NCBI GenBank assembly: GCA_050694055.1
Contig: JBOGWX010000053.1
Span: 6,251 to 70,250, forward strand
Origin: Actinomycetota bacterium
GTDB lineage: Bacteria; Actinomycetota; CADDZG01; WHSQ01
DNA length: 64,000 bases
Direction: 5' to 3'
The notes under the pieces are model-generated. The model made no database searches. It was not told where the DNA came from and saw only the letters and a list, made by a program, of their open reading frames with translations. The position numbers and the translations under genes were made by a program. Shown here piece by piece: positions 4,713 to 58,143 of this stretch. Position 1 is the stretch's first letter. Each line of letters starts with the position of its first letter.

Positions 4713-5858
4713 TTAGCCCTCGGTGAGGCGCCGGCCGATGACGTAGCGCTGTATCTGGTTCGTCCCCTCGACGATCTGCAGACCCTTGGCGTCGCGCATG
4801 AAACGCTCGGCCGGGTACTCGGTCACGTAGCCGTAGCCTCCGTGCAACTGGAGCGCGTCGGTCGTGACTCTCATCGCCACGTCGGTGCAGAACAACTTCG
4901 CCTGCGCGGCCTGCAGTCCGTAGTCCTCTCCGGCGTCGCGCAGGGCGGCCGCGTGGCGGTAGAGCCGGCGGCCCGCCTCGATCTGGGTGGACATGTCGGC
5001 GAGCATGAACTGGATGCCCTCGTTCGAGTTGACCGGCGCTCCGAACTGCTCGCGCTCCGAGGTGAACGCCAGAGCGGCGTCGAAGGCCGCCTGGGCGAGC
5101 CCGATCCCGCAGGCCGCGATCCCCAGCCGTCCCGAGTCGAGCGAGGCCATGGCGATGCGAAAGCCCATGCCCTCTTCTCCCAGCCGCATCGTCCCCGGTA
5201 CCTCGGCGTCGTCGAGGGTGAGCTGCCAGGTGGGCGAGGAGCGCCAGCCCATCTTGTCTTCCTTCTTGGTCCCCGCGAACCCCTTCGTCCCCTTGGTCAC
5301 CAAGAAGGCGGAGATGCCGTTCGGCCCCCGGTCTCCGGTCCGGGCCATCGTCAGCACGACGTCGGCCTCGTTGCCTCGGGTGCACCAGAGCTTGCCCCCG
5401 TTGAGCCGGTACGAGCCATCGGCGCGCACGGCTTTGGTCGCCAGCGCCGCGGCGTCGGAGCCGGCGCCGGACTCGGAGAGGGAATAGGCGCCGAACCACT
5501 CCCCCGTCGCCAGCTTGCTCAGGACTTCCTTGCGCTGGGCGTCGCTGCCAAACTCGTTCACCGCGAACGCGCAGAGCGTGTGCACCGACACACCGATCGC
5601 CAGCGAGAGGTGGTGATAGGCGAGCTCCTCGATGACGAGCAGATACGAGGAGTAGCTCTGGCCGCCACCGCCGTACTCCTCGGGGAAGGCCAGCCCGGCC
5701 AGCCCGAGTTCGCCGAGCTTGGTATAGAGGGCGAGCGGATCCTCGCCTCGCTCCTCGAAGCCTGGTACCGAACCCACGACCTCGCCGGCGCAGAACTCGC
5801 GCGCCAGCCCCACGAGAGCTCTCTGGTCCTCATCCAGCAACCTCAGGTCGGGCGGCAT
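4713..5858 (-). CDS. Acyl-CoA dehydrogenase
   Basis: ORF 4713..6236 trimmed to ATG 5856-5858 (MPPDLRLLDEDQRAL...). C-terminal GGYGYVTEYPAERFMRDAKGLQIVEGTNQIQR is the ACAD signature. The upstream 126 codons are low-complexity read-through. Confidence 0.9.
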   Translation of the reverse strand: MPPDLRLLDEDQRALVGLAREFCAGEVVGSVPGFEERGEDPLALYTKLGELGLAGLAFPEEYGGGGQSYSSYLLVIEELAYHHLSLAIGVSVHTLCAFAVNEFGSDAQRKEVLSKLATGEWFGAYSLSESGAGSDAAALATKAVRADGSYRLNGGKLWCTRGNEADVVLTMARTGDRGPNGISAFLVTKGTKGFAGTKKEDKMGWRSSPTWQLTLDDAEVPGTMRLGEEGMGFRIAMASLDSGRLGIAACGIGLAQAAFDAALAFTSEREQFGAPVNSNEGIQFMLADMSTQIEAGRRLYRHAAALRDAGEDYGLQAAQAKLFCTDVAMRVTTDALQLHGGYGYVTEYPAERFMRDAKGLQIVEGTNQIQRYVIGRRLTEG

Positions 5859-6179: not shown

Positions 6180-7840
6180 GCCAACCGGGCGGCCTGGGGA
6201 GCCGCCTCGAGGCGTGGGAGAGGCTCGCGGCTTCATCGTCCCGGCCCTTGGACGTCCTCGTGGTGGGGGGCGGAATCACCGGTGCCGGCATCGCGCTGGA
6301 CGCCGCCTCACGTGGTCTGAGAACCGGCCTGGTCGAGCGCTTCGATTTCGCCTCGGGGACCTCCGGCAAGTCGTCCAAGCTGGTGCACGGAGGTTTGCGC
6401 TACCTCGAGCAGCGGGACTTCGGGTTGGTGCGCGAGGCATCGGTCGAACGCGGGTTGTTGAACCGTCTCGCGCCCCATTTGGTCGAAGCGCTTCCTTTCG
6501 TTATACCGGTGGCCGATCGCTGGCGACGAGCGAGGTTCGGAGTCGGCATGTGGGTGTACGACGCGCTTGCGAGCTTCAGGAACACGGCTATGCATCGCTA
6601 CATCGATGCCGGCACCGTCGGGCGGCTGGTGCCGGCGCTGCGACCAAACGGAGGAGACACCGGCAAGCTGCGAGGCGGTTACCTCTACTACGACTCCAAG
6701 ACCGACGACGCCCGGCTCGTGATCGAGGTGCTGGTTCAAGCGGTGCGGCTGGGTGCGACCGTGTGCAACTACGCGGCGGTTCGTAATCTCGAGTCGTCGG
6801 AACGCGGTTGCAGCATCCTCGTAGAGGACACCATCGACGGGTCGCTCATGGAGATCGCAGCCCGGCGCGTCGTCGTGGCGGGCGGAGTGTGGAACGACCG
6901 AATCGAGGCCCTCGGCAACCGCGCGGCGGCCCCTCGTCTGCGGCCCAGCAAGGGCATTCATCTGGTCTTGCGTCGGTCCGACGTTCCCCTCGCCGATGCG
7001 GCCAGCTTCATTCCCGATGCGCAAGAGAAGCGGATGCTGTTTCTGATTCCCTGGCACGACGTCGTGATCGTCGGCACGACCGACTCCGACTACGCCGGCG
7101 ACCTGGACCACCCCACGGTCACTCCCGACGAGCGCAGTTACCTGCTCGATGCCGTCAACCAAGCTCTCGGTGCGTCGTTGCGCAGCGGCGACATCGTAAG
7201 CGGATGGGCGGGTCTTCGTCCGTTGGTCCGAGCGGAGAGAGGCACCACGGTGGATTTGTCGCGCGCGCATGCCGTGTACGAGCTTGCCCCCGGTGTGGTG
7301 GGCATCACCGGGGGCAAGCTCACCACGTACCGTCGTATGGCGCAAGACGCGGTGGACCGCATCGCTGGTGACTTCGACCGGGCGGGCCGCTCGCGCACCC
7401 GGTGGATCAAGCTCGGCTGCAATGATCTCGACGCGTTGAGAGCGGCCGCAGGCCGGCGCTCCCGACGGCTTGGTGTCCCACGCGAGGCCACCGATCACCT
7501 CGTCCGTTGTTACGGCGACCGGGCCCTCGCCGTGCTCGATGTCTGCGCCGAGTCCGGACTGTCGGGTCCCCTGGTGGCCGACCACCGACCCATCGCTGCG
7601 GAAGTGCTCTATTGCGCCCGCGCAGAGATGACCGTGCAACTATCCGACCTGCTCGCGCGCCGCACCCGCCTTGGACTTACCGACGCGACTGCGGGGCTCG
7701 GAGGAGCCGGCGAGGCGCTCGCGCTCATGGCGGGCGAGTTGTCCTGGAACAACGCGGAGAGCGTGCGGCAAGTCCAAGCTCACCGCGCGGAGATCGAGCT
7801 GGAGCGCGGCACCACACTGCCCGAGGAGGTGACGGCGTGA
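6176..7840 (+). CDS. glpD: FAD-dependent glycerol-3-phosphate dehydrogenase
   Basis: 554 aa. FAD fold DVLVVGGGITGAGIALDAASRGL, then SGTSGKSSKLVHGGLRYLEQ, typical of GlpD. Confidence 0.85.
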   Translation: MSQPGGLGSRLEAWERLAASSSRPLDVLVVGGGITGAGIALDAASRGLRTGLVERFDFASGTSGKSSKLVHGGLRYLEQRDFGLVREASVERGLLNRLAPHLVEALPFVIPVADRWRRARFGVGMWVYDALASFRNTAMHRYIDAGTVGRLVPALRPNGGDTGKLRGGYLYYDSKTDDARLVIEVLVQAVRLGATVCNYAAVRNLESSERGCSILVEDTIDGSLMEIAARRVVVAGGVWNDRIEALGNRAAAPRLRPSKGIHLVLRRSDVPLADAASFIPDAQEKRMLFLIPWHDVVIVGTTDSDYAGDLDHPTVTPDERSYLLDAVNQALGASLRSGDIVSGWAGLRPLVRAERGTTVDLSRAHAVYELAPGVVGITGGKLTTYRRMAQDAVDRIAGDFDRAGRSRTRWIKLGCNDLDALRAAAGRRSRRLGVPREATDHLVRCYGDRALAVLDVCAESGLSGPLVADHRPIAAEVLYCARAEMTVQLSDLLARRTRLGLTDATAGLGGAGEALALMAGELSWNNAESVRQVQAHRAEIELERGTTLPEEVTA

Positions 7841-44295: not shown

Positions 44296-45192
44296 GTGAA
44301 GGCCCGCACCGTCTCCATCGACGTCCCCCTCGACCTTCGGCTGACTCTGCGAGTGCTCCGTGAGGGGGCGGGTGATCCCTGTCTGCGACTCACGCCCACC
44401 GAGGCGCTGCGGACCACTCGCACCCCCGACGGACTCGCGACGCTGCACCTCGCGTTGAGCGGGACCCGGCTCGAGGGGCGCGCCTGGGGGCCGGGGGCCG
44501 GGTGGCTGCTGGAGCACCTCGACGACCTCGTGGGTCTTCACGACGACGGCGGCAACCTGCGGCCTGCTCACCGGCTCGTGCGGGAGCTGCACCTGCGACT
44601 GGCCGGCATGAGGCTGGGCCGGACCCTGCGGGTCTTCGAGGCGCTCCTCCCGGCGATCCTCGGGCAGCGGGTCACCGGAGAGGAGGCTACTCGCTCGTAT
44701 CGTGCCCTCGTCCGCCGTTACGGCGATCCCGCGCCGGGGCCGATCCCGCTCATGGCGCCGCCCTCGCCCGAGCTGCTCGCCGGGCTCGGCTACTACGAGC
44801 TCCACCCGCTCGGCATCGAGCGCAGGCGAGCCGGGACGATTCTGCGCGCGGCGGCCGAGGCTCCCCGGCTGGAGCGGCTCGTCGAGACCGACGCCACCGC
44901 CGCGCGGCGACGTCTCGAGGCGATTGCGGGGGTCGGCGCGTGGACCTCGGCACACGTGGCTCGTACGGCCCTGGGGGATCCCGACGCCGTGGTGGTGGGC
45001 GACTGGAACCTGCCCCACACGGTGGCTTACGCGCTGGCCGGAGAGGAGCGCGCCACCGATGAGCGGATGCTCGAGCTGCTCGCTCCCTACGCGGGCCAGC
45101 GCGGCCGGGTGCAACGACTCATCGCTACCGGCTGCGGGTGGGCCCCCAGGCGCGGGCCGAAGCACCGGATGCGCAACTTCGCAAGGACCTGA
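44296..45192 (+). CDS. DNA-3-methyladenine glycosylase II family (AlkA-like, HhH-GPD) protein
   Basis: 298 aa. HhH-GPD region LEAIAGVGAWTSAHVARTALGDPDAVVVGDWNL. Its last 81 nt lie inside the left direct repeat of the island. Confidence 0.8.
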   Translation: MKARTVSIDVPLDLRLTLRVLREGAGDPCLRLTPTEALRTTRTPDGLATLHLALSGTRLEGRAWGPGAGWLLEHLDDLVGLHDDGGNLRPAHRLVRELHLRLAGMRLGRTLRVFEALLPAILGQRVTGEEATRSYRALVRRYGDPAPGPIPLMAPPSPELLAGLGYYELHPLGIERRRAGTILRAAAEAPRLERLVETDATAARRRLEAIAGVGAWTSAHVARTALGDPDAVVVGDWNLPHTVAYALAGEERATDERMLELLAPYAGQRGRVQRLIATGCGWAPRRGPKHRMRNFART

Positions 45193-45210
45193 TCCGTCCG
45201 CTCAGGAGCC
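45112..45210. repeat. Left 99-bp direct repeat (attL-like): 3' end of the alkA-like gene plus 18 nt
   Basis: CAACGACTCATCGCTACCGGCTGCGGGTGGGCCCCCAGGCGCGGGCCGAAGCACCGGATGCGCAACTTCGCAAGGACCTGATCCGTCCGCTCAGGAGCC matches 57031-57129 at 96 of 99 positions by hand alignment. Confidence 0.9.
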
Positions 45211-45438
45211 GTCCTTCATCGGCCCAAAGCGGAAGTCACCAACCGTAGAAGCAACGGAACCTGCGCGAGGCTCGCCCTCGACGACTTGTGGAGGCACGGA
45301 TGGCGAACTCTCGTCGTAGTCGTGGATGGCCACTAATAGCGCCGGAGACAGGCTCACGAGTGCCAAAGTACGACCAGGAACAGGGCCGTCGCAAGGAACC
45401 CCGTAACGAATCTGCGCGGGTAGTAGCCGAAGGGAGTG

Positions 45439-45813
45439 CTAGCCAGCATTGCTTTCTTTGCCCTCGGGTGCAGCAAGTCGCCCAATGATGCGATTGATTC
45501 GCGACCAGTCATAGGGTGCCTCGTGATCTGTTCGTTCCTCGGCTTCGGTCTGAAGCTCGCGAAGAATAGGAAGCGCCTCCACGATCCCAAACTCGTCGAC
45601 GAGCGCCAAAGCATCGAACTGTTGGCGCGGCTCGGGCGACCGGAGCCATTCGCATATCACCTGTCGAGCAACAAGCTGCTTCTGGGCGTCGAACCTCCGA
45701 TAGAGCTTCATCAGTTCCATCAAGGCTCCATGGGACTCCTTCCTGTCCATGAACTCACGATCGACCCGGAACCAGTAGTCATTCATCTCACGCCGGAAGT
45801 CGTCGACGTTCAT
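45439..45813 (-). CDS. Hypothetical protein, putative immunity protein of cassette 3
   Basis: 124 aa, helical and acidic (MNVDDFRREMNDYWFRVDREF...). Its ATG overlaps the TGA of the upstream ORF (ATGA, 45810-45813). The role is inferred from position only. Confidence 0.5.
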   Translation of the reverse strand: MNVDDFRREMNDYWFRVDREFMDRKESHGALMELMKLYRRFDAQKQLVARQVICEWLRSPEPRQQFDALALVDEFGIVEALPILRELQTEAEERTDHEAPYDWSRINRIIGRLAAPEGKESNAG

Positions 45814-46289
45814 GGAGACACCACCTTTAGGAACTCAGGCGGTATCGAGTAGGGGAAGTGCAACTCGCAGCCTCCGCCTGGCATCCCGAAATTGCGGCCA
45901 ACCTGAGTGACCTGGGGAATCTCGTAGCCTGCTTGTCGGAGGCCTGCGAGATCAATTCTCAGTACAGCATCGCAGGCCACGTTGGGGCTTAGAGCCAGAT
46001 CAATATGGGCCTGCATCTGGGACAGCCGCCGCGGAGTGGCGTACGACCCGGCTCGGAGACCGGTCCTCTCAATCGACCCGACAGCTTGTCTCACAGTCCA
46101 GTGAAATGCCTCGTCACCCGCACTGATCGCCCTTGTGGCAACTAGTCCTTGAGAACCTGAGAGCGATTCCCCGCGAGACCCTCCACGATCCCCACTCCTG
46201 TCCCATGTGCGCTGGCATTGGTTGTGCTGCCGGGCGCGAGTCTCGCCCTGTGTCGTAGTCGTAGGTCGCTCGATCGGGTGTCGTTGCAT
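45810..46289 (-). CDS. Hypothetical protein, putative orphan toxin domain (cassette 3); 5' end uncertain or frameshifted
   Basis: 159-aa ORF. The C-terminal about 110 residues look globular (ATRAISAGDEAFHWTVRQAVGS...GGGCELHFPYSIPPEFLKVVSP). The N-terminal third is low-complexity and overlaps ORF 46114..46467 in another frame. Confidence 0.4.
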   Translation of the reverse strand: MQRHPIERPTTTTQGETRARQHNQCQRTWDRSGDRGGSRGESLSGSQGLVATRAISAGDEAFHWTVRQAVGSIERTGLRAGSYATPRRLSQMQAHIDLALSPNVACDAVLRIDLAGLRQAGYEIPQVTQVGRNFGMPGGGCELHFPYSIPPEFLKVVSP

Positions 46290-46422
46290 TCGAAGGCGCC
46301 GCTCGGACTAGAAGATCAAGAGGAGCGCCAGAGTGGATGAGGAATGGCGCTCCGAACAGGAGTAGCAAGACCATAAGGGCGCGAGTCGTAAACGTAGGTC
46401 GCAGCCGAAAAAGGTCGATCAT
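46114..46422 (-). CDS. Small TM-helix ORF, possibly the detached N-terminus of the cassette-3 toxin
   Basis: ATG 46420-46422 with GAGG 9 nt upstream (about -12 counted from its first base). MIDLFRLRPTFTTRALMVLLLLFGAPFLIHS resembles the TM N-terminus of ORF 46940..47548. It overlaps 45810..46289 by 176 nt in a different frame. Confidence 0.3.
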   Translation of the reverse strand: MIDLFRLRPTFTTRALMVLLLLFGAPFLIHSGAPLDLLVRAAPSNATTPDRATYDYDTGRDSRPAAQPMPAHMGQEWGSWRVSRGIALRFSRTSCHKGDQCG

Positions 46423-46442
46423 GGTTGCAGCCTCGATGCCGT

Positions 46443-46943
46443 TCATTCGAAGCTCGGCCTCAGCCAAAGACCGAGTAGCCGATCCTCGGAGACCCCCGCA
46501 ACGACATCTTGCGCGAACTCGATCGCGCTTTCAGGTTCGAGTGGTTGGTCGGAACCCAGTTGCACCCAGCCCGTGGCCGGATCGAGAACTGTCGACCATT
46601 CGCCGACTTCCACCAGAGCTTCCGAAACGCCGGGCTTTAGATCAAGCGAGGCGGTCGATATCTGACCTGGCTGCGCCTGAGGAATGAGGACCTCCGCCTC
46701 TTTCCACGTCTCCATAGGGTGATATCCCCACACGTAGAGGAAGCGGCCGGTCTCGACACCGACCTCAATTTGGAGTGACCCAACTAGGAGTGAAGTGGTG
46801 CCCTTTCCCCCCGCGGCCCTGGTCAGCCCATCGGGGTCTAAGGGTCGGAAATCGAACGCGTGATCCTCGCGAATGTAAGCGAGGAGTCCAGCTAGGACCG
46901 TATCCGTTGGATGCGCGAGCAGGGCATGCGTCATTGCCGTCAT
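46443..46943 (-). CDS. Hypothetical protein, putative immunity protein of cassette 2
   Basis: 166 aa. Its ATG overlaps the TGA of the upstream ORF (ATGA, 46940-46943). No family recognised. Confidence 0.5.
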   Translation of the reverse strand: MTAMTHALLAHPTDTVLAGLLAYIREDHAFDFRPLDPDGLTRAAGGKGTTSLLVGSLQIEVGVETGRFLYVWGYHPMETWKEAEVLIPQAQPGQISTASLDLKPGVSEALVEVGEWSTVLDPATGWVQLGSDQPLEPESAIEFAQDVVAGVSEDRLLGLWLRPSFE

Positions 46944-47548
46944 CCCCCACTCCGGAATAGGAAGTGAAGAACGGTGTTCGTGTTCGGGTCGACGACGAGC
47001 TGCCAGGTTCCCTGACTGCCCCCGTACGCCCCCGAGACATCCCAGCGAAGTGCCCCAGGGACCCCACCGGGATCGGGGATCGGATCAGCGGCCTCCATGA
47101 TCTCGCGCATCGTCAACCGAGAGTCCAAGTAGGGCCGCGCGGGTTGACCGGCCTTCGTGATGTCGTCTAGATGCCGACTAACTGTTCCCGAAAGTCGTAG
47201 CTCGGCTACGTCGATTCCGTGGCGTGTGAGCGACGCAGCCCCCTTTGTGGCATTTAGATGCGAAGGCTCAAGAACGGCGCGCTTCACTTTGCCTGCTGAA
47301 TTCCCCCGGCCCACTGCCGATGGCAGCTCAAGCGATGAATTCGACGTGGAAGAATCATCAAAGGTGGTCGAAGGCGCGAACCAAGTGGGCGAGTCGTAAC
47401 TGTCAATCGGCAGAGGGCCGACCGGAGCGACCGCCAAGACCACTAGGGTGACGGCTGCAAATAACCACGTTGTTAGTGCGTCAGCTCTATTCCTTAACGA
47501 ATCGTAGGCGTAAGCCGGCGTCCCGTAGCCGACCGGGAGCGCCTTCAT
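46940..47548 (-). CDS. Hypothetical membrane-anchored protein, putative toxin of cassette 2
   Basis: 202 aa. One N-terminal TM helix (WLFAAVTLVVLAVAPV), then a globular C-terminal domain (...SRHLDDITKAG...GTWQLVVDPNTNTVLHFLFRS). Its ATG overlaps the TGA of the DUF2283 gene. Confidence 0.5.
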   Translation of the reverse strand: MKALPVGYGTPAYAYDSLRNRADALTTWLFAAVTLVVLAVAPVGPLPIDSYDSPTWFAPSTTFDDSSTSNSSLELPSAVGRGNSAGKVKRAVLEPSHLNATKGAASLTRHGIDVAELRLSGTVSRHLDDITKAGQPARPYLDSRLTMREIMEAADPIPDPGGVPGALRWDVSGAYGGSQGTWQLVVDPNTNTVLHFLFRSGG

Positions 47549-47778
47549 GACCGGCCGCCTGGTGGCGGCGCGCTATCCAGCAGACTCTTGGGCAAGAACC
47601 TCGACGCGTCTAGGACTTCGACGCCGAGCAACCTTCCGTCAGCATCGAAGTCGAGGTTGATCTCACCGTTTACCTGCAGGGGGTCACAGGGGTAGGTCGT
47701 AGCCACGCCACCCGCGCCTATATCATCCACGAAATAGATATAGGCAGCGTCGACGCTTGAGTCGTACTCGATCCTCAT
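47545..47778 (-). CDS. DUF2283-family protein, cognate immunity/antitoxin for the RHS tip
   Basis: 77 aa. MRIEYDSSVDAAYIYFVDD...INLDFDADGRLLGVEVLDASRFLP is the DUF2283 pattern. Its ATG overlaps the RHS TGA (ATGA, 47775-47778). Confidence 0.8.
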   Translation of the reverse strand: MRIEYDSSVDAAYIYFVDDIGAGGVATTYPCDPLQVNGEINLDFDADGRLLGVEVLDASRFLPKSLLDSAPPPGGRS

Positions 47779-50700
47779 GGCTGCGCCTTCATCAGGTTCT
47801 GGATGTATCCATAGCCTGATTTCGGGACGATTACTGTCCGGGCTGCGCCTTGATAGGTCCCGACGAAGATGTTGCTGGCCGCGTCATAATACCCAGTCTT
47901 CCAGACATTCTCGTGGTAGTACCTGAACGGACTTGAGGAACCGAGGACATTCTGAACCTCGTCGAGCCCCACGCCTCGGCTGGTCATACGTCGCAAAGCG
48001 TGCCCGCTGAGTTCGATGCTCTCATCGCCGAATTGCATGATGACGCGGGCTGCTCCGTCACTCCCTACGACAAACCTTCGGCTCCCACTAATCCCCCTTG
48101 TGGCCTTCCCAGCCTTGGCCAGCTTGTCGAGTCCCTTGGTACCAATGATCCCGGGGATGATCCTGCCGATCGCCTCGCCGGGATTGCCTGCCTTCCAGTC
48201 CTCGATGATGGGACCCGAGACGCTGTGCCACAATGACGATCCGAACTCTCCGGAGTTGTTCCACGCATAGGAGCCGAACGCGCCCACGTTCCTTTTGCAG
48301 CCACCGAAGTCCTGCGCGCAGTGCCAGCCGCCGACCACAATGTCCTTGGCTCCGACAATGGTGTCGACGACACCCTCACCGCCGCCCTTTACTACGCCGA
48401 TGACGTCCTTGCCGAACTCCACCGGGTTGTATCCCGAACCGCCGTCCTCCTCCTGGGCTGGAGGTGGCTGAGGAGCGGGGTACTGATATCTCCCGGCGGT
48501 GTTGGCCTCATAGGCCCGGGCGCCGATCGCGGCGCTGCCGATCTGCTCACCCTTTGCCTGGGCCCGAGCGAGTTTTGCGCTGCCGGTCCCATCGGGGATC
48601 GCCGCGTGGCCGTCGGACTCGATGTAGCTCACGGGATTGCCCGCCGCCAGCGCGTAGCGGTTGTTGGTCAGCCGGTCGGTCGAGAGCCCCAGGTTGGCGA
48701 GCGCCCCCAGGTAGAGGTCGGGCTGGATGAAGCTCGCGGTGCCCGAAGAGAAGCGGCGCGCCCCCATGTCGAGGCTCTCGGAGCCCGAGTCGTAGCGCTT
48801 GGCGCTGTAGCGGAAGGGGTTGAAGGGGTCGCTGTCGCTGGTCTCGCCCGAGGCGTCGGTGACCGCGTCGCCCTTGGTGAGCCCGACATCCTCGTCGCCG
48901 TAGGGGCGGTAGCCGTAGGAGGCGCGCACCGTGCCCTCGTCGGATCCCGGCGTGTTCTCCACCAGCACCGAGGTCGAGCCGTGGACGTCGTAGCCGAAGC
49001 TGTAGCTGCGCTCGGTGGCGGCCACGTTGGTCAGCGCCAGGCGAGTCCCGTAGGCGTCGTAGCTGAGCTGTTTGGTGACATCTGGGGCGGAAGTGTAGGC
49101 GGCGGTCTCGCTGGCGACCAGGGGGCTGAGCCCGATGTGGCCGAAGCTCGTGGTCCGGTCCGCGCTCGGGTCCTCGCGGTGGCTCTCGGTCTGGCTCACC
49201 ACCCGGTCGAGCGCGTCGTAGGTGTAGTTGGACTTGTCGCTGATCGCCCCGCCCGAGTAGCTCCGGTAGGCGACCAGGCGCTCGGAGAAGTCGTAGGAGT
49301 AGTCGGCCAGCAGGTTGGCGCTGGCGCTCGACCCTGAGGGCGAGCAGTCGGCCGCCGAGCCCGAGCTGGTGGTGACGCAGTCGAGGTTGCCGAGCACGTC
49401 GTAGTGGTAGCGGCTGGTTGATCCGGCCTCGGTCACCTCGGTGAGCTGGGCGCCGTCATAAGACGAGGTCTTGGTCTTGTCGAGGCTCCCGCCCGTGAGC
49501 CCGCTGGCCCCGGTGTAGCTCTTCTCGGTGGTGAGGTTGCCGGCGGCGACGATCCCGGGCGTGACCCTGGCCGCCTCGTCGAAGCTGTAGTCGATGCGGG
49601 TGTCGTGTCCGTCGAAGTAGCCGCTCGTGCGGTCGCGCCCGTCGTAGGCGTAGCGGGCGGTGCACGGTCGAGGCGCCCCTCCCCCAGGCTCGCACTCGGT
49701 CGGCTGCGCGCTCGGGCCCTCGAGCCCGAAGTCGTCGGCGACCCGGTGGCCGTTTAAGTAGTCGCCGCCGGGGTCCTCGTAGAACAGCTCGTGCGACTCG
49801 ACGATGGCGCCGGCGGAGTTTCTGATCTCGAGCGTGTCGAGCTTGGTGTTGGCGAAGTAGTCCCACTCGGTTACTTGCTGGGGCGAGGTCGACCACCCGC
49901 AGCCCGGGGCCGAGCCTGTGCCCCGGTAGAGCTTGCGGGAGTCCTCGAGCCCGGTCGGCTTGAAGGCGTTCACGACCCTGAGGTCGTCGTCGCAGGCAGA
50001 TGCCTTGTTCCCCTCGATTACCTGTGTGGAAAGCCAGTCGGCGGCGTCGTAAGTGAAGCTGTTGGATCGCCCGCCGGAGCCCGTGGTCGAGTCCGCGTCG
50101 TCGACGCGCGAGGAGAGGTTGGAGTTGGCGTCGTAGGCGTAGAGCGTGTGCCGCTGCGTCCCTCCGGTCTTGGCGTGCGACGCGAGCTCGATGCGATCGA
50201 GGCTGTCGTAGGTGGCGCTCAGCTCGATCGGCTTCTCACCGGGCGACTCCACCCCCGAGGCGTCGACGGCGCTGGTGAGGTTGTTGTGGGCGTCGTAGTC
50301 GTAGCTCACCCGCTGACCGTCGCGGTCGGTGCGAAGCCGCAGCTGCCCGTCGGCGAAGTAGGACCAGAACATGGCAGAGGACTGGTCGAACTCGCCGGGA
50401 GCCTTCTGAACCAGTCGCTCCGCCTGCCACCCCTCGGCGCGGTAGTCGAACACGGTCTTGGGGTTGGCGGGGTCCTTGGTCGAGTAGATCCAGCCGCTGT
50501 CGTAGTAGGCGGAGGTCGTGCCCGCGGCCGACTTGGATGCCGCATGCGTTCCCCCCGGCTCGAACTGAGCGGGGTCCGACACCGTCACCGGCAGCGAGGT
50601 CCAGGTGAGGTTGCCGTTGGCATCGTATTGGTGGTGGACGTAGGCGGCCTCGGTGCCGGGACCGGTCGGGAGCGCGGTTCTGGTGAGACGGTTGAGCCCG

Positions 50701-53615
50701 TCGTAGCTGTAGGACTCGACGTAGTCGCCGTAGCTCGGACGCAGCTCCGCGCCGGGCAGATCCGAAGTGCCGGCCGCGTCCCAGGCGCGCGGCGAGATCG
50801 ACTTGATGAGGTTGCCGGCCCCGTCGTACTCCTGCGCGGTGGTGACGAAGCGCCCCCCGAACTCAAACGGCGTGCGTTGCTTGACCATGAGGTCGCGCTC
50901 ATCATGGTAATGCTCGGTCGTGACCGTGGTGGCGCTCCCGTCGGGCTTGCGGTCGGGTGTGGTGATCGTGGAGACGTTGTCGTTGGCGTCGTACGCGTAG
51001 GTCGTGGTGTTGCCGTTGGGGTCGGTGACCGACTCGAGCTTGTGGTCGGACAAGTAGGTGTAGCTGGTGGCGAAGTCGTTGCTCGCCTCACAGGGGCCGC
51101 CCGCCCCCTTGGGCGGGATCGTGGCGACGAGGTCGCCCGTCAGCGCCTCGAAGCAGTAGCCGGTCGTAAGCGCGCCGCGGCTGTTGCCGGCCGCGTCGAC
51201 GTCGGGACGGGACTCGGATTTGACGCGATCGAGCGCGTCGTACCCATAAGTGGTGGTGAAGTGCGCCGGGGTCGCGCCCGTGAGGTTGCCTTTGGGTGCG
51301 GTCGTGGTGGCCAGCCGTCCGAGGTCGTCGTAGGTCGCGGTGGTGGCGTGGCCCTGGGGATCGGTCGCGGTGACCATCCGGTCCATGGCGTCGTAGGCCA
51401 TCGTCGTGCTGGGACCGTCGGGCACGAAGCCGCGCCCGTAGCGCGATCGGAGCTCGGCAGTAACGTTGTCGTTGGGATCGTGGCGCGCCCCCGACCATAT
51501 GAGCCGCCCGCGCTCGAGCTCGGTCGACTTCGGCGCGCTGACGAGGCCGAGGCGCTGGAACGCGTCGTAGAAGAAGTAGGTGCGATAGTTCTCCGGCTCG
51601 AGCACCGGCTCCCACTCCAGTGGATTGGCAAAGCGGTGGTGGTTGGGATCCTGGGAGAAGACCATGAGCCCGTCCGCGTCGTAGCCGAACTCGCTGATGC
51701 CGCCCTCGGCGTCGGTCACCTTGGTCGGCAGCCCGCTGGCGTCGTAGTCGTTGAAGGTGGTGGTGTGGTCGTTGGCGTCGGTCATGGTCTTGAGCGTCCC
51801 CGGATCCGCCGAGCCGGCCAGGTTCCAGGTGTATTCGCTCGTGTGCCTGACGCCGCGGTGATCCGCCGGCGAGGTCACCGAGACGAGGTTGCCGGCGGGG
51901 TCGTTTGAGAAGTCCCAGCGGAAGCTCCCCGCCGGCGCGCCAGAGAGGTTGCCCTTGGGGGCGGTCTTGGAGATAATGAAGCTGAGATGGGTGCCCGGGT
52001 CGGTGGCGTCGCCCGCTCGGTCGTCGTAGGTCAGGGTCGTGGCGTGACCCTGCTGATCGGTGACCTCGGTGAGATATCCGTTGGGGTTGTGGTCGTATGA
52101 CGTCGTCACGCCATGGGGCTCGGTGATCGAGTCGAGATGGTTGTCGTCGCCCCACGCCAGCGTGGTCACCTCGGCGGCGGGGTTTTGGAGCTCGCCGACG
52201 CGCCCGGAGCAGTCGTACGCGAAGCGACTGGGGCGACCGGCGTCGTCGAGCACGGTGGTGATGCGCTGGTCGATGTCGTACTGATAGGTCGTGGTCGTGC
52301 CCGCCCGGTCGCTGAGCGAGGCGAGCTTCCACTTGTTCTCGCCCGAGGTGACGTAGCTAAAGGTGGTCTCCGCGCCGCGCGGGTCGATGACGCCGAAGAG
52401 CTGATCGGATTGATTGCTGGTGTTTGCCGGCGGGTCCCGGCGCGTGTTGGCGTCGGGGATGGCGGGCCCGGAGCTGTCCGAGGTGGTGTAGGTGAAGGTG
52501 AAGCTGCGGTCGGGTAGCGCTCTGAGGTCGGCGGTGAGCCCACCCTCCTGGGTGAGGCGCAGCAGGTTGCCGTCGTCGTAGTAGTCGAAGGTCAGCTTCG
52601 ATCCGTCGTGGTCGCTGATCGCCTTGACGTTGCCTCGGACCTTGGGGTTGTTGGTCTCCTCCTTGGAGTAGTAGTCCAGCGTGAAGCTGCGCCCCGGAGC
52701 GGGAGTCGAGTCGTTTCCGGCCGCATCGGTAAACGCGGCCACGCGTTTGCCGGGCTGCCCCGGGTCCTCGGCCGGGGCGACGGCCTCGAGCTCGTAGGTG
52801 AGCGTGTTGCCGTTGCGATCGGTGACCGCGGTGGGGAAGCCGTCGGCGTCGTAATAGAAGGTGACGTCGTCGGGCCGGGTAAAGGCCCACTTGCCGAGCG
52901 GGTCGCCGGTCAGCGCCCGCAGATAGAGGTGCACCCCCGGCGGCGGGTGCCACACGATCGAGCCGCCCACCTTCTCGCCGTCGAACTGGTGGGGGGTGCC
53001 GTCGGCGTCGACGAAGCGGACCCAGCGAGGGGCGTTTCCCTGAGGGTCGTCGGCGTTCTTGGGATGGATGTCGATGGGCTGCCCCAGCTGGGTGAGGCTC
53101 GAGATCGACAGCCCGAAGTTGTCGCCCAGCGGCGGTCCGGTGCGCTTGACGATGCTGTTGTAAGTGATGTCCACGATGGTCGACAGTCCCCGGCCGGGGG
53201 AGGCAAACGGGGTCCAGCGCAAAACCGAGTTGCCGTTGTTGACGTTGGTGAGCTGCGACATCCCCGCGCCCAGCGCGGTCGGCCGGTAGTGGTAGTAGTG
53301 CTCGAGACCGAGCGCCTCGGTCATGAGCGCGAGGTTGACCGTCGAGGCCGAACCCTGCTCGCAGGGCTGCATGCGGGCGCGCCCCACGACCGCCGGCGCG
53401 ACCTTGGGGGCATTGCCCTCACTGGAGAAGGCGACCTCGCCCCCTCCGCTGAGGTCGACCAGATCGAAGCGCAGCTGGTAGGGCTCCGACGCCACTCCGG
53501 GAGGAAGCGGGGGCGGCTCGAGCTGGAGACCGCTGAGAGCTTGCGAGGCCCCGGCGTCGAGCGAAGCGAGCGTGGCGATCGAGTCTTGCTGCGCCACGGT
53601 GCCGGCGGGAGTCAC
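47775..53615 (-). CDS. RHS-repeat polymorphic toxin, C-terminal fragment (3 of 3): RHS/YD shell, PT-TG-like linker, DUF4258-like toxin tip
   Basis: 1946 aa. Dozens of YD repeats (YAYDANDN, YSYDGLNR, HQYDANGN, YDYDAHNN, TYDALDR). The core ends ...NNRYALAAGNPVSYIESDGH. The tip carries PGIIGTKGLDKLAK and SGHALRRMTSRGVGLDEV. The reading frame stays open upstream of the GTG. Confidence 0.9.
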   Translation of the reverse strand: MTPAGTVAQQDSIATLASLDAGASQALSGLQLEPPPLPPGVASEPYQLRFDLVDLSGGGEVAFSSEGNAPKVAPAVVGRARMQPCEQGSASTVNLALMTEALGLEHYYHYRPTALGAGMSQLTNVNNGNSVLRWTPFASPGRGLSTIVDITYNSIVKRTGPPLGDNFGLSISSLTQLGQPIDIHPKNADDPQGNAPRWVRFVDADGTPHQFDGEKVGGSIVWHPPPGVHLYLRALTGDPLGKWAFTRPDDVTFYYDADGFPTAVTDRNGNTLTYELEAVAPAEDPGQPGKRVAAFTDAAGNDSTPAPGRSFTLDYYSKEETNNPKVRGNVKAISDHDGSKLTFDYYDDGNLLRLTQEGGLTADLRALPDRSFTFTYTTSDSSGPAIPDANTRRDPPANTSNQSDQLFGVIDPRGAETTFSYVTSGENKWKLASLSDRAGTTTTYQYDIDQRITTVLDDAGRPSRFAYDCSGRVGELQNPAAEVTTLAWGDDNHLDSITEPHGVTTSYDHNPNGYLTEVTDQQGHATTLTYDDRAGDATDPGTHLSFIISKTAPKGNLSGAPAGSFRWDFSNDPAGNLVSVTSPADHRGVRHTSEYTWNLAGSADPGTLKTMTDANDHTTTFNDYDASGLPTKVTDAEGGISEFGYDADGLMVFSQDPNHHRFANPLEWEPVLEPENYRTYFFYDAFQRLGLVSAPKSTELERGRLIWSGARHDPNDNVTAELRSRYGRGFVPDGPSTTMAYDAMDRMVTATDPQGHATTATYDDLGRLATTTAPKGNLTGATPAHFTTTYGYDALDRVKSESRPDVDAAGNSRGALTTGYCFEALTGDLVATIPPKGAGGPCEASNDFATSYTYLSDHKLESVTDPNGNTTTYAYDANDNVSTITTPDRKPDGSATTVTTEHYHDERDLMVKQRTPFEFGGRFVTTAQEYDGAGNLIKSISPRAWDAAGTSDLPGAELRPSYGDYVESYSYDGLNRLTRTALPTGPGTEAAYVHHQYDANGNLTWTSLPVTVSDPAQFEPGGTHAASKSAAGTTSAYYDSGWIYSTKDPANPKTVFDYRAEGWQAERLVQKAPGEFDQSSAMFWSYFADGQLRLRTDRDGQRVSYDYDAHNNLTSAVDASGVESPGEKPIELSATYDSLDRIELASHAKTGGTQRHTLYAYDANSNLSSRVDDADSTTGSGGRSNSFTYDAADWLSTQVIEGNKASACDDDLRVVNAFKPTGLEDSRKLYRGTGSAPGCGWSTSPQQVTEWDYFANTKLDTLEIRNSAGAIVESHELFYEDPGGDYLNGHRVADDFGLEGPSAQPTECEPGGGAPRPCTARYAYDGRDRTSGYFDGHDTRIDYSFDEAARVTPGIVAAGNLTTEKSYTGASGLTGGSLDKTKTSSYDGAQLTEVTEAGSTSRYHYDVLGNLDCVTTSSGSAADCSPSGSSASANLLADYSYDFSERLVAYRSYSGGAISDKSNYTYDALDRVVSQTESHREDPSADRTTSFGHIGLSPLVASETAAYTSAPDVTKQLSYDAYGTRLALTNVAATERSYSFGYDVHGSTSVLVENTPGSDEGTVRASYGYRPYGDEDVGLTKGDAVTDASGETSDSDPFNPFRYSAKRYDSGSESLDMGARRFSSGTASFIQPDLYLGALANLGLSTDRLTNNRYALAAGNPVSYIESDGHAAIPDGTGSAKLARAQAKGEQIGSAAIGARAYEANTAGRYQYPAPQPPPAQEEDGGSGYNPVEFGKDVIGVVKGGGEGVVDTIVGAKDIVVGGWHCAQDFGGCKRNVGAFGSYAWNNSGEFGSSLWHSVSGPIIEDWKAGNPGEAIGRIIPGIIGTKGLDKLAKAGKATRGISGSRRFVVGSDGAARVIMQFGDESIELSGHALRRMTSRGVGLDEVQNVLGSSSPFRYYHENVWKTGYYDAASNIFVGTYQGAARTVIVPKSGYGYIQNLMKAQP

Positions 53616-54730
53616 CCATTGGGCGATGAGCTCCGTGGTCGACGCGGCCAGGCGACGGTGCTGTCGTTGGTGACTGTGACGTCGATCAGCTCCTGAGCGG
53701 CGTGACGAAAGACGCTCGGGGGGCTGACCGCGATGGCGGCCTGATATTTGGTGCCCGAGGTGTTGTCGACCTCCATGGCCGCCGGGGTCGAGGTGCGGGT
53801 GAGCCCGTTGACCCCGATCGCCCTGGCGGTAATCGCGTGGGCGCTGATGCCGTGCTCGGGACGCGCGTCGTAGCCGGGCACGGCGGGATCGAGGGTGTCC
53901 CAGGTGGCTTGATAGGGCGCGGTGGTGTCGGTTGCGAACAGCGTCCCGTCGACCAGGAACTCGACCCGCGCCACTCCCGAGTCGCTCGCGGCGCTGGCGC
54001 TGACGGTGACGGTTTGTGTGGTGATCGGGCTGGTGGCGGGGTCGAGAGCGGAGATCGACACCGTCGGCCGATGCCCGATCCCGGGTGTCACCGGGGTGCT
54101 CGAGGTCGCGTTCCCCGCGTCGTCGGTGGCGACCGCCCAGAGGCTGATGTCCGGCTCGAGTCCCTGGTTGAGCACCAGGGTCATGTCGTTGATGTCGAAG
54201 GGGACCTCATAGGGGGCCTCGGTGGCGGTGCCCACCAGCTGATCGGGGTGGCCGTCCTCTTGGAAGTAGAACTCGACTGATTCGACCCGGCCGTCGTCGA
54301 AAGCCTCGGCCCGCAGCGTCACGGGCTCGTCCCACACCAGGGTCTCCCGATCGCTGGGGAACTCGAGCGCGACGGTGGGCCCGCTCGAGGCCGCCGAGCC
54401 CGAGTAGGTGACCTCGAGCTTGGGCCGGAGGTTGGGCGCTACGGCGTAGTCATCGGAGAAGTATCTGAAGTTCTGGCCGGTGCGGTTGGTGGACTCTTGC
54501 GGGCGCTTGAGCAGCAGGCCGAAGTTGGGGTGCTGGCCGGTGACCCAGCCCGTCACCAGCGGCTCGACGTCGTAGCTGTCCCACCCCACGGCCTCGCGGT
54601 CGACCGCAGAGGTGGCCACGATGGCGCCGGAGCGGTCTGCTCCCGGCGTACTCCATTCCGCCCCCGCTGGGTCTCCTGCCAGGTCGCGCCCCGGCCGCTG
54701 CAGGCGCCGTTGGCGCCGCCCTCCCGCCAC
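53612..54730 (-). CDS. Middle fragment (2 of 3) of the same toxin: end of a DNRLRE-type domain plus two Ig-like domains
   Basis: Meaningful sequence begins at ...AEWSTPGADRSGAIVATSAVDREAVGWDSYDVEPLVTGWVTGQHPNFGLLLKR (about 54662 downward). Ig-like repeats (VESVEFYFQEDG..., VARVEFLVDGTLFATD...). The first about 23 codons are out-of-frame junk. Confidence 0.7.
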   Translation of the reverse strand: MAGGRRQRRLQRPGRDLAGDPAGAEWSTPGADRSGAIVATSAVDREAVGWDSYDVEPLVTGWVTGQHPNFGLLLKRPQESTNRTGQNFRYFSDDYAVAPNLRPKLEVTYSGSAASSGPTVALEFPSDRETLVWDEPVTLRAEAFDDGRVESVEFYFQEDGHPDQLVGTATEAPYEVPFDINDMTLVLNQGLEPDISLWAVATDDAGNATSSTPVTPGIGHRPTVSISALDPATSPITTQTVTVSASAASDSGVARVEFLVDGTLFATDTTAPYQATWDTLDPAVPGYDARPEHGISAHAITARAIGVNGLTRTSTPAAMEVDNTSGTKYQAAIAVSPPSVFRHAAQELIDVTVTNDSTVAWPRRPRSSSPNG

Positions 54731-56706
54731 GCCCTCGTGACCCGGTGGATGTCGACCCCGATGTTGGCCGAGGTCGCCTCGTGGTAGAGCGACAACTGAG
54801 CCGACGAGACGTTTGCATCCGGAGGAATCTTGCGTAAATCGAAGCGGATCAGCGGCCGGTAGACGTAGTTGTCGGTCGTGCCCACTCGCAAGGAGGTGGA
54901 AGCCCCGTAGTTCTTGCAGCTCGAGTCGCCGTCGACCATGAAGGTCGACGATCCCGCGTTGGGCTCTGGCTGCAAGCTCGCCGTGGTCAGCCCCGCCGCC
55001 GGCAGGGTCACGGTCCGGCGGTCGGAGGAGTTGCCCCAGGTCACGATTCGGTAGGTGAAGCTTTGGTCCGGAGCCGCGGTGGTGTCCCGGTAGGTGGTGC
55101 GGTCGACGTCGCCGATGTGAGCGATGAAGGTGGCTGCTCCGGGCGTGAAGCTCGCATCCCGGGAACGGTGGATCTCATATCCGGCAAAGCCGAACACGCC
55201 GTCGAAGGGGTAGCGGCTCCAACGCAGCTCGGCCCCGTTGGAGTGCAGCACCTCGGGCGCGTGCAGGGTGGAAGCGGTGTTGATCCAGGTGACCTCGAGC
55301 TTGGGCCGCATGGTGGGGTCGCCCGTGAAGCGCTTGCCCGGGACCCGGGGACCGCTGGCGCCGCTGGGCTCGGTGCTGCGCTTGACCAGCACCCCGTTGT
55401 TGGGCACGTCATAGAGCAGCCAGTCGTTGACCAGCTCTTCGACGTCCCACGAGATCCACTGCGGCGGCTCGGCGCCGCTGGCCAGCGTCGTCGACGCCAC
55501 CGTCGGCCCCACGGTCATGTTGTTGGGCTTGGTCGAGGTCACCCATGCCGAGTTCATCTGTTTCACCGCGAGGCCGTGGGACTTTCCTCCGCAGTTCGAC
55601 GAGCCTCCGACGCAGGTCCCGTCGTAGAAGAGCTTGAGCTGCGCAGCGCTGGCCATGGGGCCCTCGGGGATCGCGCTGAGGTCGAAGCGCAGGCCGGCAC
55701 GCCAGACGTTGCTCGAGTTGGTGCCGATGGGAAGGCGCGTGCCGGTGGTGCCGGCGCACGACATACAGGCCCAGTCGAAGCTTGCGTCCTCGGTCGACTC
55801 GATGCCCTCCTGGATCGTGACCGTTGGATCTAACAGGACGGGGAAGACCCGCTCCGGAGCGCTCAGCCACTCGGGGTCGACCGAGAGGGCCACCTCGAAT
55901 CCCCCGTCATGCGGCGTGACCTCCATCGAGGCTTCGCCGGTGGCGTAGGCCTCGACCTCGCCGGTGACCGAGGAGTCGCGTACCGTGGGCGCGTCTAGCA
56001 CGAACAGCGGGTTGGCGTCGTCCCCCCCGATGAAGTCATAGGAGCCGTCCGGGTTGGGCTGGGCTTCCATGGTGGGGTCCGAGGTCGTGAGGTTGAAGGT
56101 GTAGGAGCTCTGTGCCTCTGGGTCGTTGAGAACGAGGGTCTCCTTGACCCCCAGGGTCGTCACCTCGTAGCGCAGATCGGTGTCCGCCACGGCGTCCGGG
56201 TAGACCAGGCGCGCGCCGTCGGCCTGTGCCTCGGTAGGCTGCGCACCCTCGAGTTCCATGCGGACGCTTTCTTCGTGGATTCGCAGCTCCATGAAGTCCC
56301 CGACGGGCTGGTCTGAGAAGAAGACGTCGAAGAGGTTGGGCCCCGTGGCGAGATCGAAGCCCGGCTCGGTCGTGGGGCCGAGCGTTGGATCGATGGTCCG
56401 CCACTGCCCCCGGCTCACTTCGAATTGCACCGGGGCGGTGTGAAAGGTGGTGGTGTAGCTGCCGTCAGCGTTCTGCTTGGTGCGCGCGGTGGACGACTGC
56501 AGGTCTGACAAGTCGAGTGCAGCAGGTTGCTTGGTGGTCTGGGCTTCGGCCTCTGAGGCGAACTCGGCTGCCACTAGTGGCAACAGTGAGGCCGTGAGGC
56601 AGATGATCAGCAGCACCGCCGAGCATCTTGGCCTGCGACTTGCCGGTCGCTGCAACCGACGTGCCACGCTCCTGCTGGATTTCTTGCCGGCCGTCCTTGC
56701 GCCCAC
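54553..56706 (-). CDS. N-terminal fragment (1 of 3) of the same toxin: signal peptide plus DNRLRE-type domains
   Basis: Signal peptide CSAVLLIICLTASLLPLVAAEFASEAEA. Repeated DNRLRE-like blocks (RAGLRFDLSAIPEGPMASAAQLKLFY; LIRFDLRKIPPDANVSSAQLSLYHE...IHRVTRAW). The sequence after ...ATWQETQRG (about 54660) is out-of-frame junk. Confidence 0.75.
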   Translation of the reverse strand: MGARTAGKKSSRSVARRLQRPASRRPRCSAVLLIICLTASLLPLVAAEFASEAEAQTTKQPAALDLSDLQSSTARTKQNADGSYTTTFHTAPVQFEVSRGQWRTIDPTLGPTTEPGFDLATGPNLFDVFFSDQPVGDFMELRIHEESVRMELEGAQPTEAQADGARLVYPDAVADTDLRYEVTTLGVKETLVLNDPEAQSSYTFNLTTSDPTMEAQPNPDGSYDFIGGDDANPLFVLDAPTVRDSSVTGEVEAYATGEASMEVTPHDGGFEVALSVDPEWLSAPERVFPVLLDPTVTIQEGIESTEDASFDWACMSCAGTTGTRLPIGTNSSNVWRAGLRFDLSAIPEGPMASAAQLKLFYDGTCVGGSSNCGGKSHGLAVKQMNSAWVTSTKPNNMTVGPTVASTTLASGAEPPQWISWDVEELVNDWLLYDVPNNGVLVKRSTEPSGASGPRVPGKRFTGDPTMRPKLEVTWINTASTLHAPEVLHSNGAELRWSRYPFDGVFGFAGYEIHRSRDASFTPGAATFIAHIGDVDRTTYRDTTAAPDQSFTYRIVTWGNSSDRRTVTLPAAGLTTASLQPEPNAGSSTFMVDGDSSCKNYGASTSLRVGTTDNYVYRPLIRFDLRKIPPDANVSSAQLSLYHEATSANIGVDIHRVTRAWREGGANGACSGRGATWQETQRGRNGVRREQTAPAPSWPPLRSTARPWGGTATTSSRW

Positions 56707-57030: not shown

Positions 57031-57129
57031 CAACGGCTCATCGCTACCGGCTGCGGGTGGGCCCCCAGGCGCGGCCCGAAGCACCGGCTGCGCAACTTCG
57101 CAAGGACCTGATCCGTCCGCTCAGGAGCC
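57031..57129. repeat. Right 99-bp direct repeat (attR-like): orphan copy of the alkA-like 3' end
   Basis: 96/99 identical to 45112-45210; the differences are at repeat positions 6, 44 and 59. It contains the stop codon (57121-57123) of the converging cNMP-binding gene. Confidence 0.9.
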
Positions 57130-58143
57130 TTCCGGCGGGTCGCCGCCCCCTTCTTCCTCGCGCCGGTGGTCGCCGCTGAGCTGCTCCAGATGTTCGGGCT
57201 CCACCACCTCGGGCGGCACGACGACGCCCCGCAGTGGCGTGACGGCCGTCACCGTCGCGGTGCGGCGGCCCCCTTCCAGCACGGCGCGCTCGCCCATCAC
57301 CGCCCCCGGTCCGATCTCGGCGACGAGCTTGCCGTCCACCTCCACCGACGCGACGCCATCGAGGACCAAAAAGAGGTCACTCCCCTCCTCACCCTGACGG
57401 AACAGGACCTCGCCCGCGCGCAGTCGACGTCGCTTGGTTGGATGCTCCGAGCCCATGATGGAGCGCGACAAGTGACGCTCGAGCTCGGACTCGACCTCGG
57501 TCGTCAGGGCGTCCCGATCGACCGCCTCCCACGGCGTCACCCCGCCGAAGGCGTGGTGGTACCACTGGTCGAAGTCGATGAGCCCGCTCTTGGCCACGAG
57601 ATCGCCAGACGCGTCGTAGACCCAGTGGCGGGGGAAGGGGCTCGAACCGACCAGTCGCCCCTCGGCCGTCCCATCGGCGAGAAGCTCGAGCTCGAGCGTG
57701 GTCCACACCACCGGAGCTCGCAGTTGCACGAACGGCCTGTGTTTGACGCGGCGCGGGGCGGGAAGCGCCGGGCGGCCCCCTGCCGTCTGTCGCCAGGTGA
57801 CCGACTCGGCCGTGACGATGGGATCGGGGCGCAGGTCAGGAAGCGAGATTCCCGGGAGGCTGATGGTGCGGGTGCCCCTGCCCACCACGGAGCTCCCCAT
57901 GATTCCGCCGCCTTCGCAGCCGTAGCCGACGATTCCTCGTTCGTCCACGTCGATCCACGCCTCGAGCACGTTCGCGAAGCGCAGTTTCTGGTTTTCGACC
58001 AGGCGCGCAACGTCGTCTATATGTCCGGGCGGGGGTTCGTCGATGTGAGTGATCCCCACCTGAAAGGGAAGGTTCGGCAGACCCCTGATGGCCTCGGACG
58101 GAATCCAAGAGATCACGCTCACTGAAGAAGAGTGACGAGTCAC
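57121..58143 (-). CDS. Protein with an unknown about 230-aa N-terminal domain and a C-terminal cyclic-nucleotide-binding domain
   Basis: 340 aa. cNMP-binding beta-barrel LRAGEVLFRQGEEGSDLFLVLDGVASVEVDG...IGPGAVMGERAVLEGGRRTATVTAV. GTG 58141-58143 overlaps the TGA of the cyclase gene. Confidence 0.75.
   Translation of the reverse strand: MTRHSSSVSVISWIPSEAIRGLPNLPFQVGITHIDEPPPGHIDDVARLVENQKLRFANVLEAWIDVDERGIVGYGCEGGGIMGSSVVGRGTRTISLPGISLPDLRPDPIVTAESVTWRQTAGGRPALPAPRRVKHRPFVQLRAPVVWTTLELELLADGTAEGRLVGSSPFPRHWVYDASGDLVAKSGLIDFDQWYHHAFGGVTPWEAVDRDALTTEVESELERHLSRSIMGSEHPTKRRRLRAGEVLFRQGEEGSDLFLVLDGVASVEVDGKLVAEIGPGAVMGERAVLEGGRRTATVTAVTPLRGVVVPPEVVEPEHLEQLSGDHRREEEGGGDPPEGS

Follow-up and report, generated by a model that had tools for sequence, protein, structure and literature searches.

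An Actinomycetota DNRLRE-RHS polymorphic toxin gene lies in three open reading frames and is probably a recent pseudogene

We analyzed a 64,000-nt stretch of the genome of an uncultured member of the Actinomycetota (positions 6,251 to 70,250 of contig JBOGWX010000053.1, assembly GCA_050694055.1), here called the window, whose own positions serve as coordinates throughout. The analysis confirmed that three consecutive minus-strand open reading frames (ORFs) in it, 54553-56706 (717 codons), 53612-54730 (372 codons), and 47775-53615 (1946 codons), are colinear parts of one DNRLRE/Big_7/RHS polymorphic toxin of ∼2,975 residues. The coordinates and the junction sequence place a drop of one in the reading frame between the first ORF and the second, and again between the second and the third. 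A first-pass annotation, made from the DNA letters and their translations, had proposed just such a single giant, secreted DNRLRE/Ig-like/RHS toxin gene, with two single-base frame breaks that leave it as three ORFs, and the comparisons described below bear it out. The parts of the locus are as follows:

54553-56706, minus strand: piece 1, 717 codons from a GTG at 56706; in public records it begins at 56616 and has 687 amino acids (aa).
∼54655-54667, minus strand: break 1, the interval of the first −1 frame change, with no residue missing relative to single-ORF homologues.
53612-54730, minus strand: piece 2, 372 codons; in public records it begins at 54589 and has 325 aa.
∼53640-53650, minus strand: break 2, the second −1 frame change, within an Ig-like domain ahead of the RHS shell.
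47775-53615, minus strand: piece 3, 1946 codons; homology begins ∼11 codons 5′ of its GTG, at ∼53648.
48606-48851, minus strand: RHS repeat-associated core (piece 3 residues 1589 to 1670; TIGR03696, E = 4.1e−8), marking where the shell gives way to the variable tip.
47778-48077, minus strand: toxin domain, the C-terminal 100 aa, DUF4258-like (BECR/RelE-ParE superfamily), assigned through homologues.
47545-47778, minus strand: intact DUF2283 gene, 77 aa, presumed immunity gene, overlapping the toxin stop codon (PF10049, E = 1.1e−12).

The three pieces were searched separately and never joined, and 17 single-ORF homologues were compared with them at the junctions. The search with piece 3 returned 898 relatives, the best of which, apart from the sequence itself, was 45% identical. 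Among the 119 best non-self relatives, 64 are 2,750 to 3,000 aa long and carry DNRLRE/CBM96, Big_7, and RHS domains in one ORF, and the earlier estimate of 2,970 to 2,980 aa for the restored protein falls within this most common size class. Hundreds of actinobacterial homologues have the same architecture as a single ORF of 2,500 to 3,100 aa, for example the proteins named “DNRLRE domain-containing protein” of Micromonospora species and of Gaiellaceae and Acidimicrobiales metagenome-assembled genomes (MAGs). Comparison with orthologous RHS genes, which the first-pass annotation had suggested as a check, thus found relatives that are single ORFs colinear with all three pieces. The same annotation had named orthologues with the same three-gene organization and independent starts as evidence that would speak against a broken gene; the only records laid out in that way are base-identical copies of the same DNA.

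At break 1, homology to piece 1 stops at 54661 and homology to piece 2 begins at 54664; in 10 of the 17 homologues the two alignments meet at one and the same subject residue. The final ∼35 codons of piece 1 are out-of-frame junk, while piece 2 is homologous to relatives only from ∼54664 to ∼53645 and has no signal peptide of its own. At break 2, the homology of piece 2 gives way to the RHS frame at 53642 to 53648, and the alignments continue at adjacent subject residues (1061 and 1062 in homologue P0005, 999 and 1000 in P0007, and 1004 and 1005 in P0020). The RHS frame had been described as open upstream of its GTG. It is open for 197 codons 5′ of that codon, only the last ∼11 of which are homologous to relatives, and the GTG itself overlaps the TGA stop codon of piece 2 (GTGA). 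Read from these alignments, both breaks are seamless net −1 frame changes that fall within folded domains and not between them.

Domain profiles gave the same result. The N terminus of piece 1 resembles a signal peptide when judged by eye, with an Arg-rich n-region, a hydrophobic core, and an AEA motif, and it precedes a complete DNRLRE/CBM96 domain and the N-terminal half of another. Break 1 splits this second domain in midprofile. The Pfam CBM96 match covers profile positions 8 to 90 at residues 585 to 665 of piece 1, and the NCBIfam DNRLRE_dom model (NF033679, E = 8.2e−32) matches piece 1 in two stretches and ends near profile position 90. The missing second half is found in piece 2, whose residues 23 to 108 match positions 85 to 164 of the 164-position NCBIfam profile. 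Piece 2 continues with two Big_7 Ig domains (Pfam, E = 8.4e−25) and then the opening strand of another Ig-like domain. Piece 3 contains the RHS/YD shell (PF05593, E = 5.5e−53 with eight stretches; TIGR01643, E = 3.2e−43) and, after the RHS-associated core, a 276-residue tip; homologues diverge past about residue 1680 of this piece. The profile scan of the ORFs gave no match to LysM or DUF6531, and no sortase or SecF-like gene was seen adjoining the locus. Domain continuity across both ORF boundaries, as originally proposed, is therefore supported by the split DNRLRE profile at break 1 and by colinear single-ORF homologues at both breaks. The locus has the features of an RHS polymorphic toxin, namely, a repeat shell, a core before a variable tip, and a predicted C-terminal toxin domain with an adjoining downstream gene for a presumed immunity protein. 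What it lacks is a continuous ORF in which the delivery domain is linked with the shell and toxin. The two −1 breaks thus make it a broken member of the RHS toxin class, not a working one.

Three other public homologues (L023, L024, and L025) are also called as two genes. L023 (Logan assembly of SRR9290674, nt ∼4732 to 4735) has a seamless −1 break ∼43 residues upstream of the site found here, L025 (GCA_009772835.1, contig WNGF01006223.1, nt ∼3151) has lost 85 codons and changed frame, and the break in L024 is not clear-cut. L023 and L025 are unrelated metagenome homologues; in both, the split separates the Ig-like region from the RHS body. Broken copies recur across this family of very long genes. 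A break hotspot shared by the family was considered and rejected, because L023 and L025 break at positions other than those seen here.

The last 100 residues of piece 3 belong to a family of ∼300 sequences that is always C-terminal, on proteins of 60 to 2,300 aa. All of the family invariants (H26, R30, R34, F51, Y53, G62, F71, T81, and Y91) are kept in this copy. Sequence search gave no direct Pfam or PDB assignment for the tip, and its link to DUF4258 (PF14076) runs only through homologues: 22 of 30 tip homologues match this family (best E = 7.7e−9), while the tip of the window itself scores 16 bits, below the Pfam cutoff of 25. The BECR-fold family DUF4258 belongs to the RelE/ParE superfamily and has no established activity (PMC11980606). 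By this route, the tip is probably a small RNase-type antibacterial toxin. The protein encoded just downstream matches DUF2283 over the full length of the profile (positions 1 to 49 of 49) and is presumed, from its sequence and position, to be the immunity protein for the tip.

The locus lies in an 11.9-kb island between two direct repeats, 11,919 bp apart, that share 96% identity:

45112-45214, plus strand: left copy of the direct repeat, 103 bp.
57031-57133, plus strand: right copy of the direct repeat, 103 bp, the other boundary of the toxin island.

In two genomes of the same genus, the radical-SAM, alkA-like, and cNMP-binding genes that flank the island are retained, and the alkA-like and cNMP-binding genes are only ∼1.5 kb apart. 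Piece 2 has no match in any of eight sampled congeners, and the family search found no RHS match in the four congeners that it included. The tail of the island (45110-47575, G+C fraction of ∼0.60) was scored as noncoding by a codon model of the host, which indicates foreign composition and fits foreign cassettes; its ORFs (202 aa, 166 aa, and further small ones) have no Pfam match. Within the tail, at 45810-46422, two minus-strand ORFs, one of 159 aa and one with a predicted transmembrane helix, overlap in different frames, a pair that the first-pass annotation had marked as a possible additional frameshift. The picture is that of an acquired toxin island in which the weapon gene is recently dead and the immunity gene persists.

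The frameshifts are present in the assembled DNA. A 22,383-bp contig of GCA_975307705.1 and an 11,030-bp contig of the Logan assembly of SRR27067773 each match the window at 100.000% identity without a single differing base, the two breaks being shared as well, and with the 147-kb contig of the window itself at least three assembly pipelines concur on the sequence. No fused or intact allele was found in a collection of 5.8 billion clustered proteins, searched over a length range (1,070 to 3,405 aa) that would admit one.

Frame breaks were then charted across the whole 3.54-Mb genome (165 contigs) with a seven-state frame tracker and a codon-usage model trained on the long ORFs of the genome. 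The tracker is noisy (130 loose candidates, 17 strict), so the counts of true breaks are lower bounds. It recovered both breaks of the toxin gene, switching at 53649/50 and 54635/36 of the window, and it showed no further split gene in the window, in line with the first-pass annotation, which had allowed for one possible exception among the island genes. Genome wide, it returned 17 strong same-strand switches, nine of which, together with break 2, are clean mid-gene splits (10 in all). The remaining eight were set aside as normal gene junctions (leuC/leuD, oppD/oppF, ccmF/ccmH, ruvC, and others). The genome therefore contains at least eight further mid-gene frame breaks outside this gene. Those outside RHS genes affect a DAO oxidoreductase (C66), a Peptidase_S8 protein (C101), a GntP permease (C22, in a G7 run), an rve/Mu-type transposase (C128), and, probably, a cadherin-like repeat protein (C23). 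Pfam confirmed four of these splits, with profile positions 1 to 215 and 202 to 353 of DAO, 1 to 203 and 207 to 288 of Peptidase_S8, 3 to 206 and 214 to 439 of GntP_permease, and 3 to 45 and 54 to 102 of rve on the two sides of the break. The broken genes outside the RHS loci are of accessory types (transposase, protease, permease, and oxidoreductase).

Half of the 10 clean breaks lie in three RHS loci, two in the gene described here (C53), two in C108, and one in C100, so that all three RHS loci of the genome are frameshifted. RHS DNA is estimated to make up <1% of the genome, which corresponds to an ∼50-fold enrichment of breaks in RHS genes after allowing for a twofold bias toward detection in long genes. 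The C100 and C108 loci are 82% identical paralogues at contig starts. C108 has two 1-nt gaps (near nt 549 and 1440) and C100 has one 2-nt gap (near nt 1717), and at each of these the partner paralogue reads through. The sequence contexts of the 10 breaks are mixed, with one G7 run, one G5 run, a few G4 runs, several sites without a run, and one 2-nt gap. Among the 60 genomes of the same family that were sampled, RHS relatives are patchy (in 9 of 61 genomes, counting this one), and MAGs of five sister genera carry long RHS copies of 2,499 to 2,995 aa, each in one uninterrupted frame.

We conclude, at a probability of roughly 75%, that the locus is a recently inactivated pseudogene of a WapA-like, Sec-exported RHS polymorphic toxin. 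The frame is disrupted within conserved domains relative to intact homologues and by more than one independent lesion, as in a pseudogene. Among the three causes that the first-pass annotation had listed, pseudogenization comes clearly first, sequencing error second, and slippage-based switching last.

The shifts themselves are likely to be real mutations rather than errors of the consensus; several observations weigh against this. The genome is a 165-contig MAG (N50 of 36 kb), and RHS loci are strain variable, so that consensus problems are conceivable. The three identical records, which no paper was found to mention, may share a sample or reads, and their agreement excludes assembler artifacts, not systematic read errors. 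The gene is flawless apart from its two breaks, with every invariant toxin residue kept and the immunity gene intact, which is also the appearance expected of an undamaged gene carrying two consensus errors. Break 1 sits in a run of five C's, and one of the other frame breaks of the genome is in the G7 run. On this account the gene would really be one intact ORF, and the two missing bases would be artifacts carried into every assembly built from those reads. We regard this as unlikely. Random error would scatter, housekeeping genes included, and the concentration of breaks in RHS genes makes such error an improbable source. Both breaks had been described as lying in short G/C runs, which holds for break 1, whose C5 run occupies 54661-54665 on the plus strand rather than 54660-54664 as given earlier, but not for break 2, which falls in CGGCCA (53645-53650) with no homopolymer. 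Several of the other breaks are also outside homopolymers, and such mixed contexts, the 2-nt gap among them, are unlike pure homopolymer miscalling. A k-mer-based, single-run Logan assembly and two MAG pipelines give the identical sequence. MAG assembly alone does not break genes of this kind, because long homologues of comparable size are intact in the sister MAGs. Finally, two errors in one 8.9-kb gene would be improbable at the density observed across the genome, about one break per 150 to 350 kb, while two lesions in one gene are expected of a pseudogene, because the first lesion removes selection.

The remaining explanations accept the breaks as real and hold that some function survives them; taken together, they are quite improbable. 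Ribosomes might slip by −1 at both sites, or the run at break 1 might serve as a reversible on/off contingency switch. Both breaks do require a shift in the same −1 direction, and the G5 run on the mRNA strand at break 1 would let a glycine tRNA paired with GGG move back by one base and pair again; at break 2, such re-pairing is impossible. Programmed frameshifting was rejected, because neither junction contains an X XXY YYZ slippery heptamer, the 95 nt after each break fold no better than shuffled sequences (z = −0.59 and +0.28), and Rfam gave no relevant match (a snoU82P hit of 19.8 bits, against a gathering score of 42 bits, is a chance match). Nor is the frameshift conserved, since homologues are single ORFs and the few split ones break elsewhere, and two inefficient slips in succession would leave hardly any full-length toxin. 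The tracts of known contingency loci are far longer than five bases. The repeat at break 1 falls well short of that length, break 2 has none, and the three public records, which are possibly not independent, show no difference in run length. Bypass or switching is thus very improbable. Equally improbable is a functional remnant, in which the 1946-aa shell and tip would be translated from their own GTG and act inside the cell, no longer delivered, as a toxin-antitoxin (TA)-like module with the DUF2283 protein. This would suit the overlap of the piece 3 start codon with the upstream stop codon, the partner-type small protein encoded by the DUF2283 gene, the relationship of the tip family to type II TA toxins (PMC11980606), and the reported behavior of Salmonella RHS elements as type II TA modules (PMC7043789). 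The GTGA overlap is expected by chance, however, and its reading as designed coupling was rejected: when a −1 shift runs into a TGA stop codon the result is NTGA, and three of the four bases that can stand at N create a start codon. Split homologue L025 has overlapping gene calls of the same kind. Piece 2, which coupling would require, begins inside a broken domain, and the nearest Shine-Dalgarno-like sequence, a GGAG judged by eye, is ∼15 nt 5′ of the GTG, too far away. It is also very doubtful that the whole RHS arsenal (three loci and five breaks) is kept frameshifted “off” rather than undergoing simple decay, as a reservoir that reverts or is read through only rarely. If this were true, only rare cells would bear the cost of toxin production while all cells would keep immunity.

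Under the pseudogene interpretation, the intact ancestor would have been one protein of ∼2,975 aa. Its architecture, taken from homology and domain matches with the signal peptide judged by eye, would have run from the signal peptide through two DNRLRE/CBM96 domains, two Big_7 domains, and a further Ig-like domain to the RHS/YD shell, the RHS-associated core, and the 276-aa tip. The tip would have ended in a DUF4258-like (BECR/RelE-type, probably RNase) domain, neutralized by the product of the overlapping DUF2283 gene. A role in bacterial competition, and the mechanism of delivery, are suggested by analogy with characterized members of the family, which bacteria use in competing with one another. 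Two independent small mutations, each a net −1, would then have struck the second DNRLRE domain and the Ig-like domain ahead of the RHS shell. With the export signal uncoupled from the shell and toxin, and with two domains halved, no deliverable toxin would be made. The intact immunity gene could still protect against the same toxin released by neighbors. The decay would be recent, because 8.9 kb is free of any other lesion, all invariant toxin residues are kept, and the immunity gene is intact.

In architecture, the closest characterized system appears to be the WapA type of Sec-exported Rhs/YD toxins of Gram-positive bacteria, to which Bacillus subtilis WapA belongs. WapA-CT1 of Streptococcus suis, at 3,158 aa, combines a Sec signal with a DNRLRE domain and LysM repeats, and it also carries an RHS barrel and a toxin at its C terminus (PMC12704120). 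The ancestral protein would share with this type a Sec-type signal (by eye here), a DNRLRE surface region, an RHS shell closed by a core, a length of ∼3,000 aa, and a variable toxin at the C terminus with an immunity gene after it. Unlike WapA, it has two DNRLRE and two Big_7 domains, no LysM or DUF6531 match, no sortase or SecF-like gene seen nearby, and a DUF4258-like tip in place of a DNase or tRNase; the chief difference is that the present copy is broken by two frameshifts. The likeness is one of architecture. The DNRLRE/RHS proteins of other Actinomycetota (Micromonospora zamorensis, Micromonospora sp. strain PLK6-60, and Gaiellaceae and Acidimicrobiales MAGs) have the same full-length domain order and are 41 to 45% identical over ∼85% of the RHS piece, none closer than 45%. 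They differ in being single ORFs of 2,500 to 3,100 aa that mostly carry other C-terminal tips, and they are uncharacterized. Frameshifted or decaying Rhs loci of enterobacteria, such as the Salmonella orphan rhs loci (PMC3967940), resemble this locus in having a disabled toxin with the downstream immunity gene and small cassettes remaining in a variable island; they belong to a different phylum, rely on the type VI secretion system where Sec would be used here, and were inactivated by truncation or recombination rather than by two point frameshifts. The tip also shares with the type II TA toxins of DUF4258 (PMC11980606) the conserved H/R/R/Y/H/K pattern typical of small RNase toxins. It differs from those stand-alone toxins in being cargo of an RHS shell, and its own copy falls below the Pfam cutoff.

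The locus is thus a broken further member of a known actinobacterial group of DNRLRE-RHS toxins and, as such, most likely an ordinary pseudogene. For annotation, this means that the deposited ORFs of 687, 325, and 1946 aa should be treated as one DNRLRE-RHS pseudogene and not as three proteins. The locus also documents a DUF4258-type, TA-like domain as RHS cargo paired with DUF2283, and it adds a further case in which a toxin has been lost while its immunity gene was kept. Frameshifted Rhs genes are common, and this case stands out mildly in just one respect: none of the three RHS loci in the genome has escaped frameshifting. Because the other two loci are broken as well, the RHS weaponry of this lineage seems to be under relaxed or negative selection.

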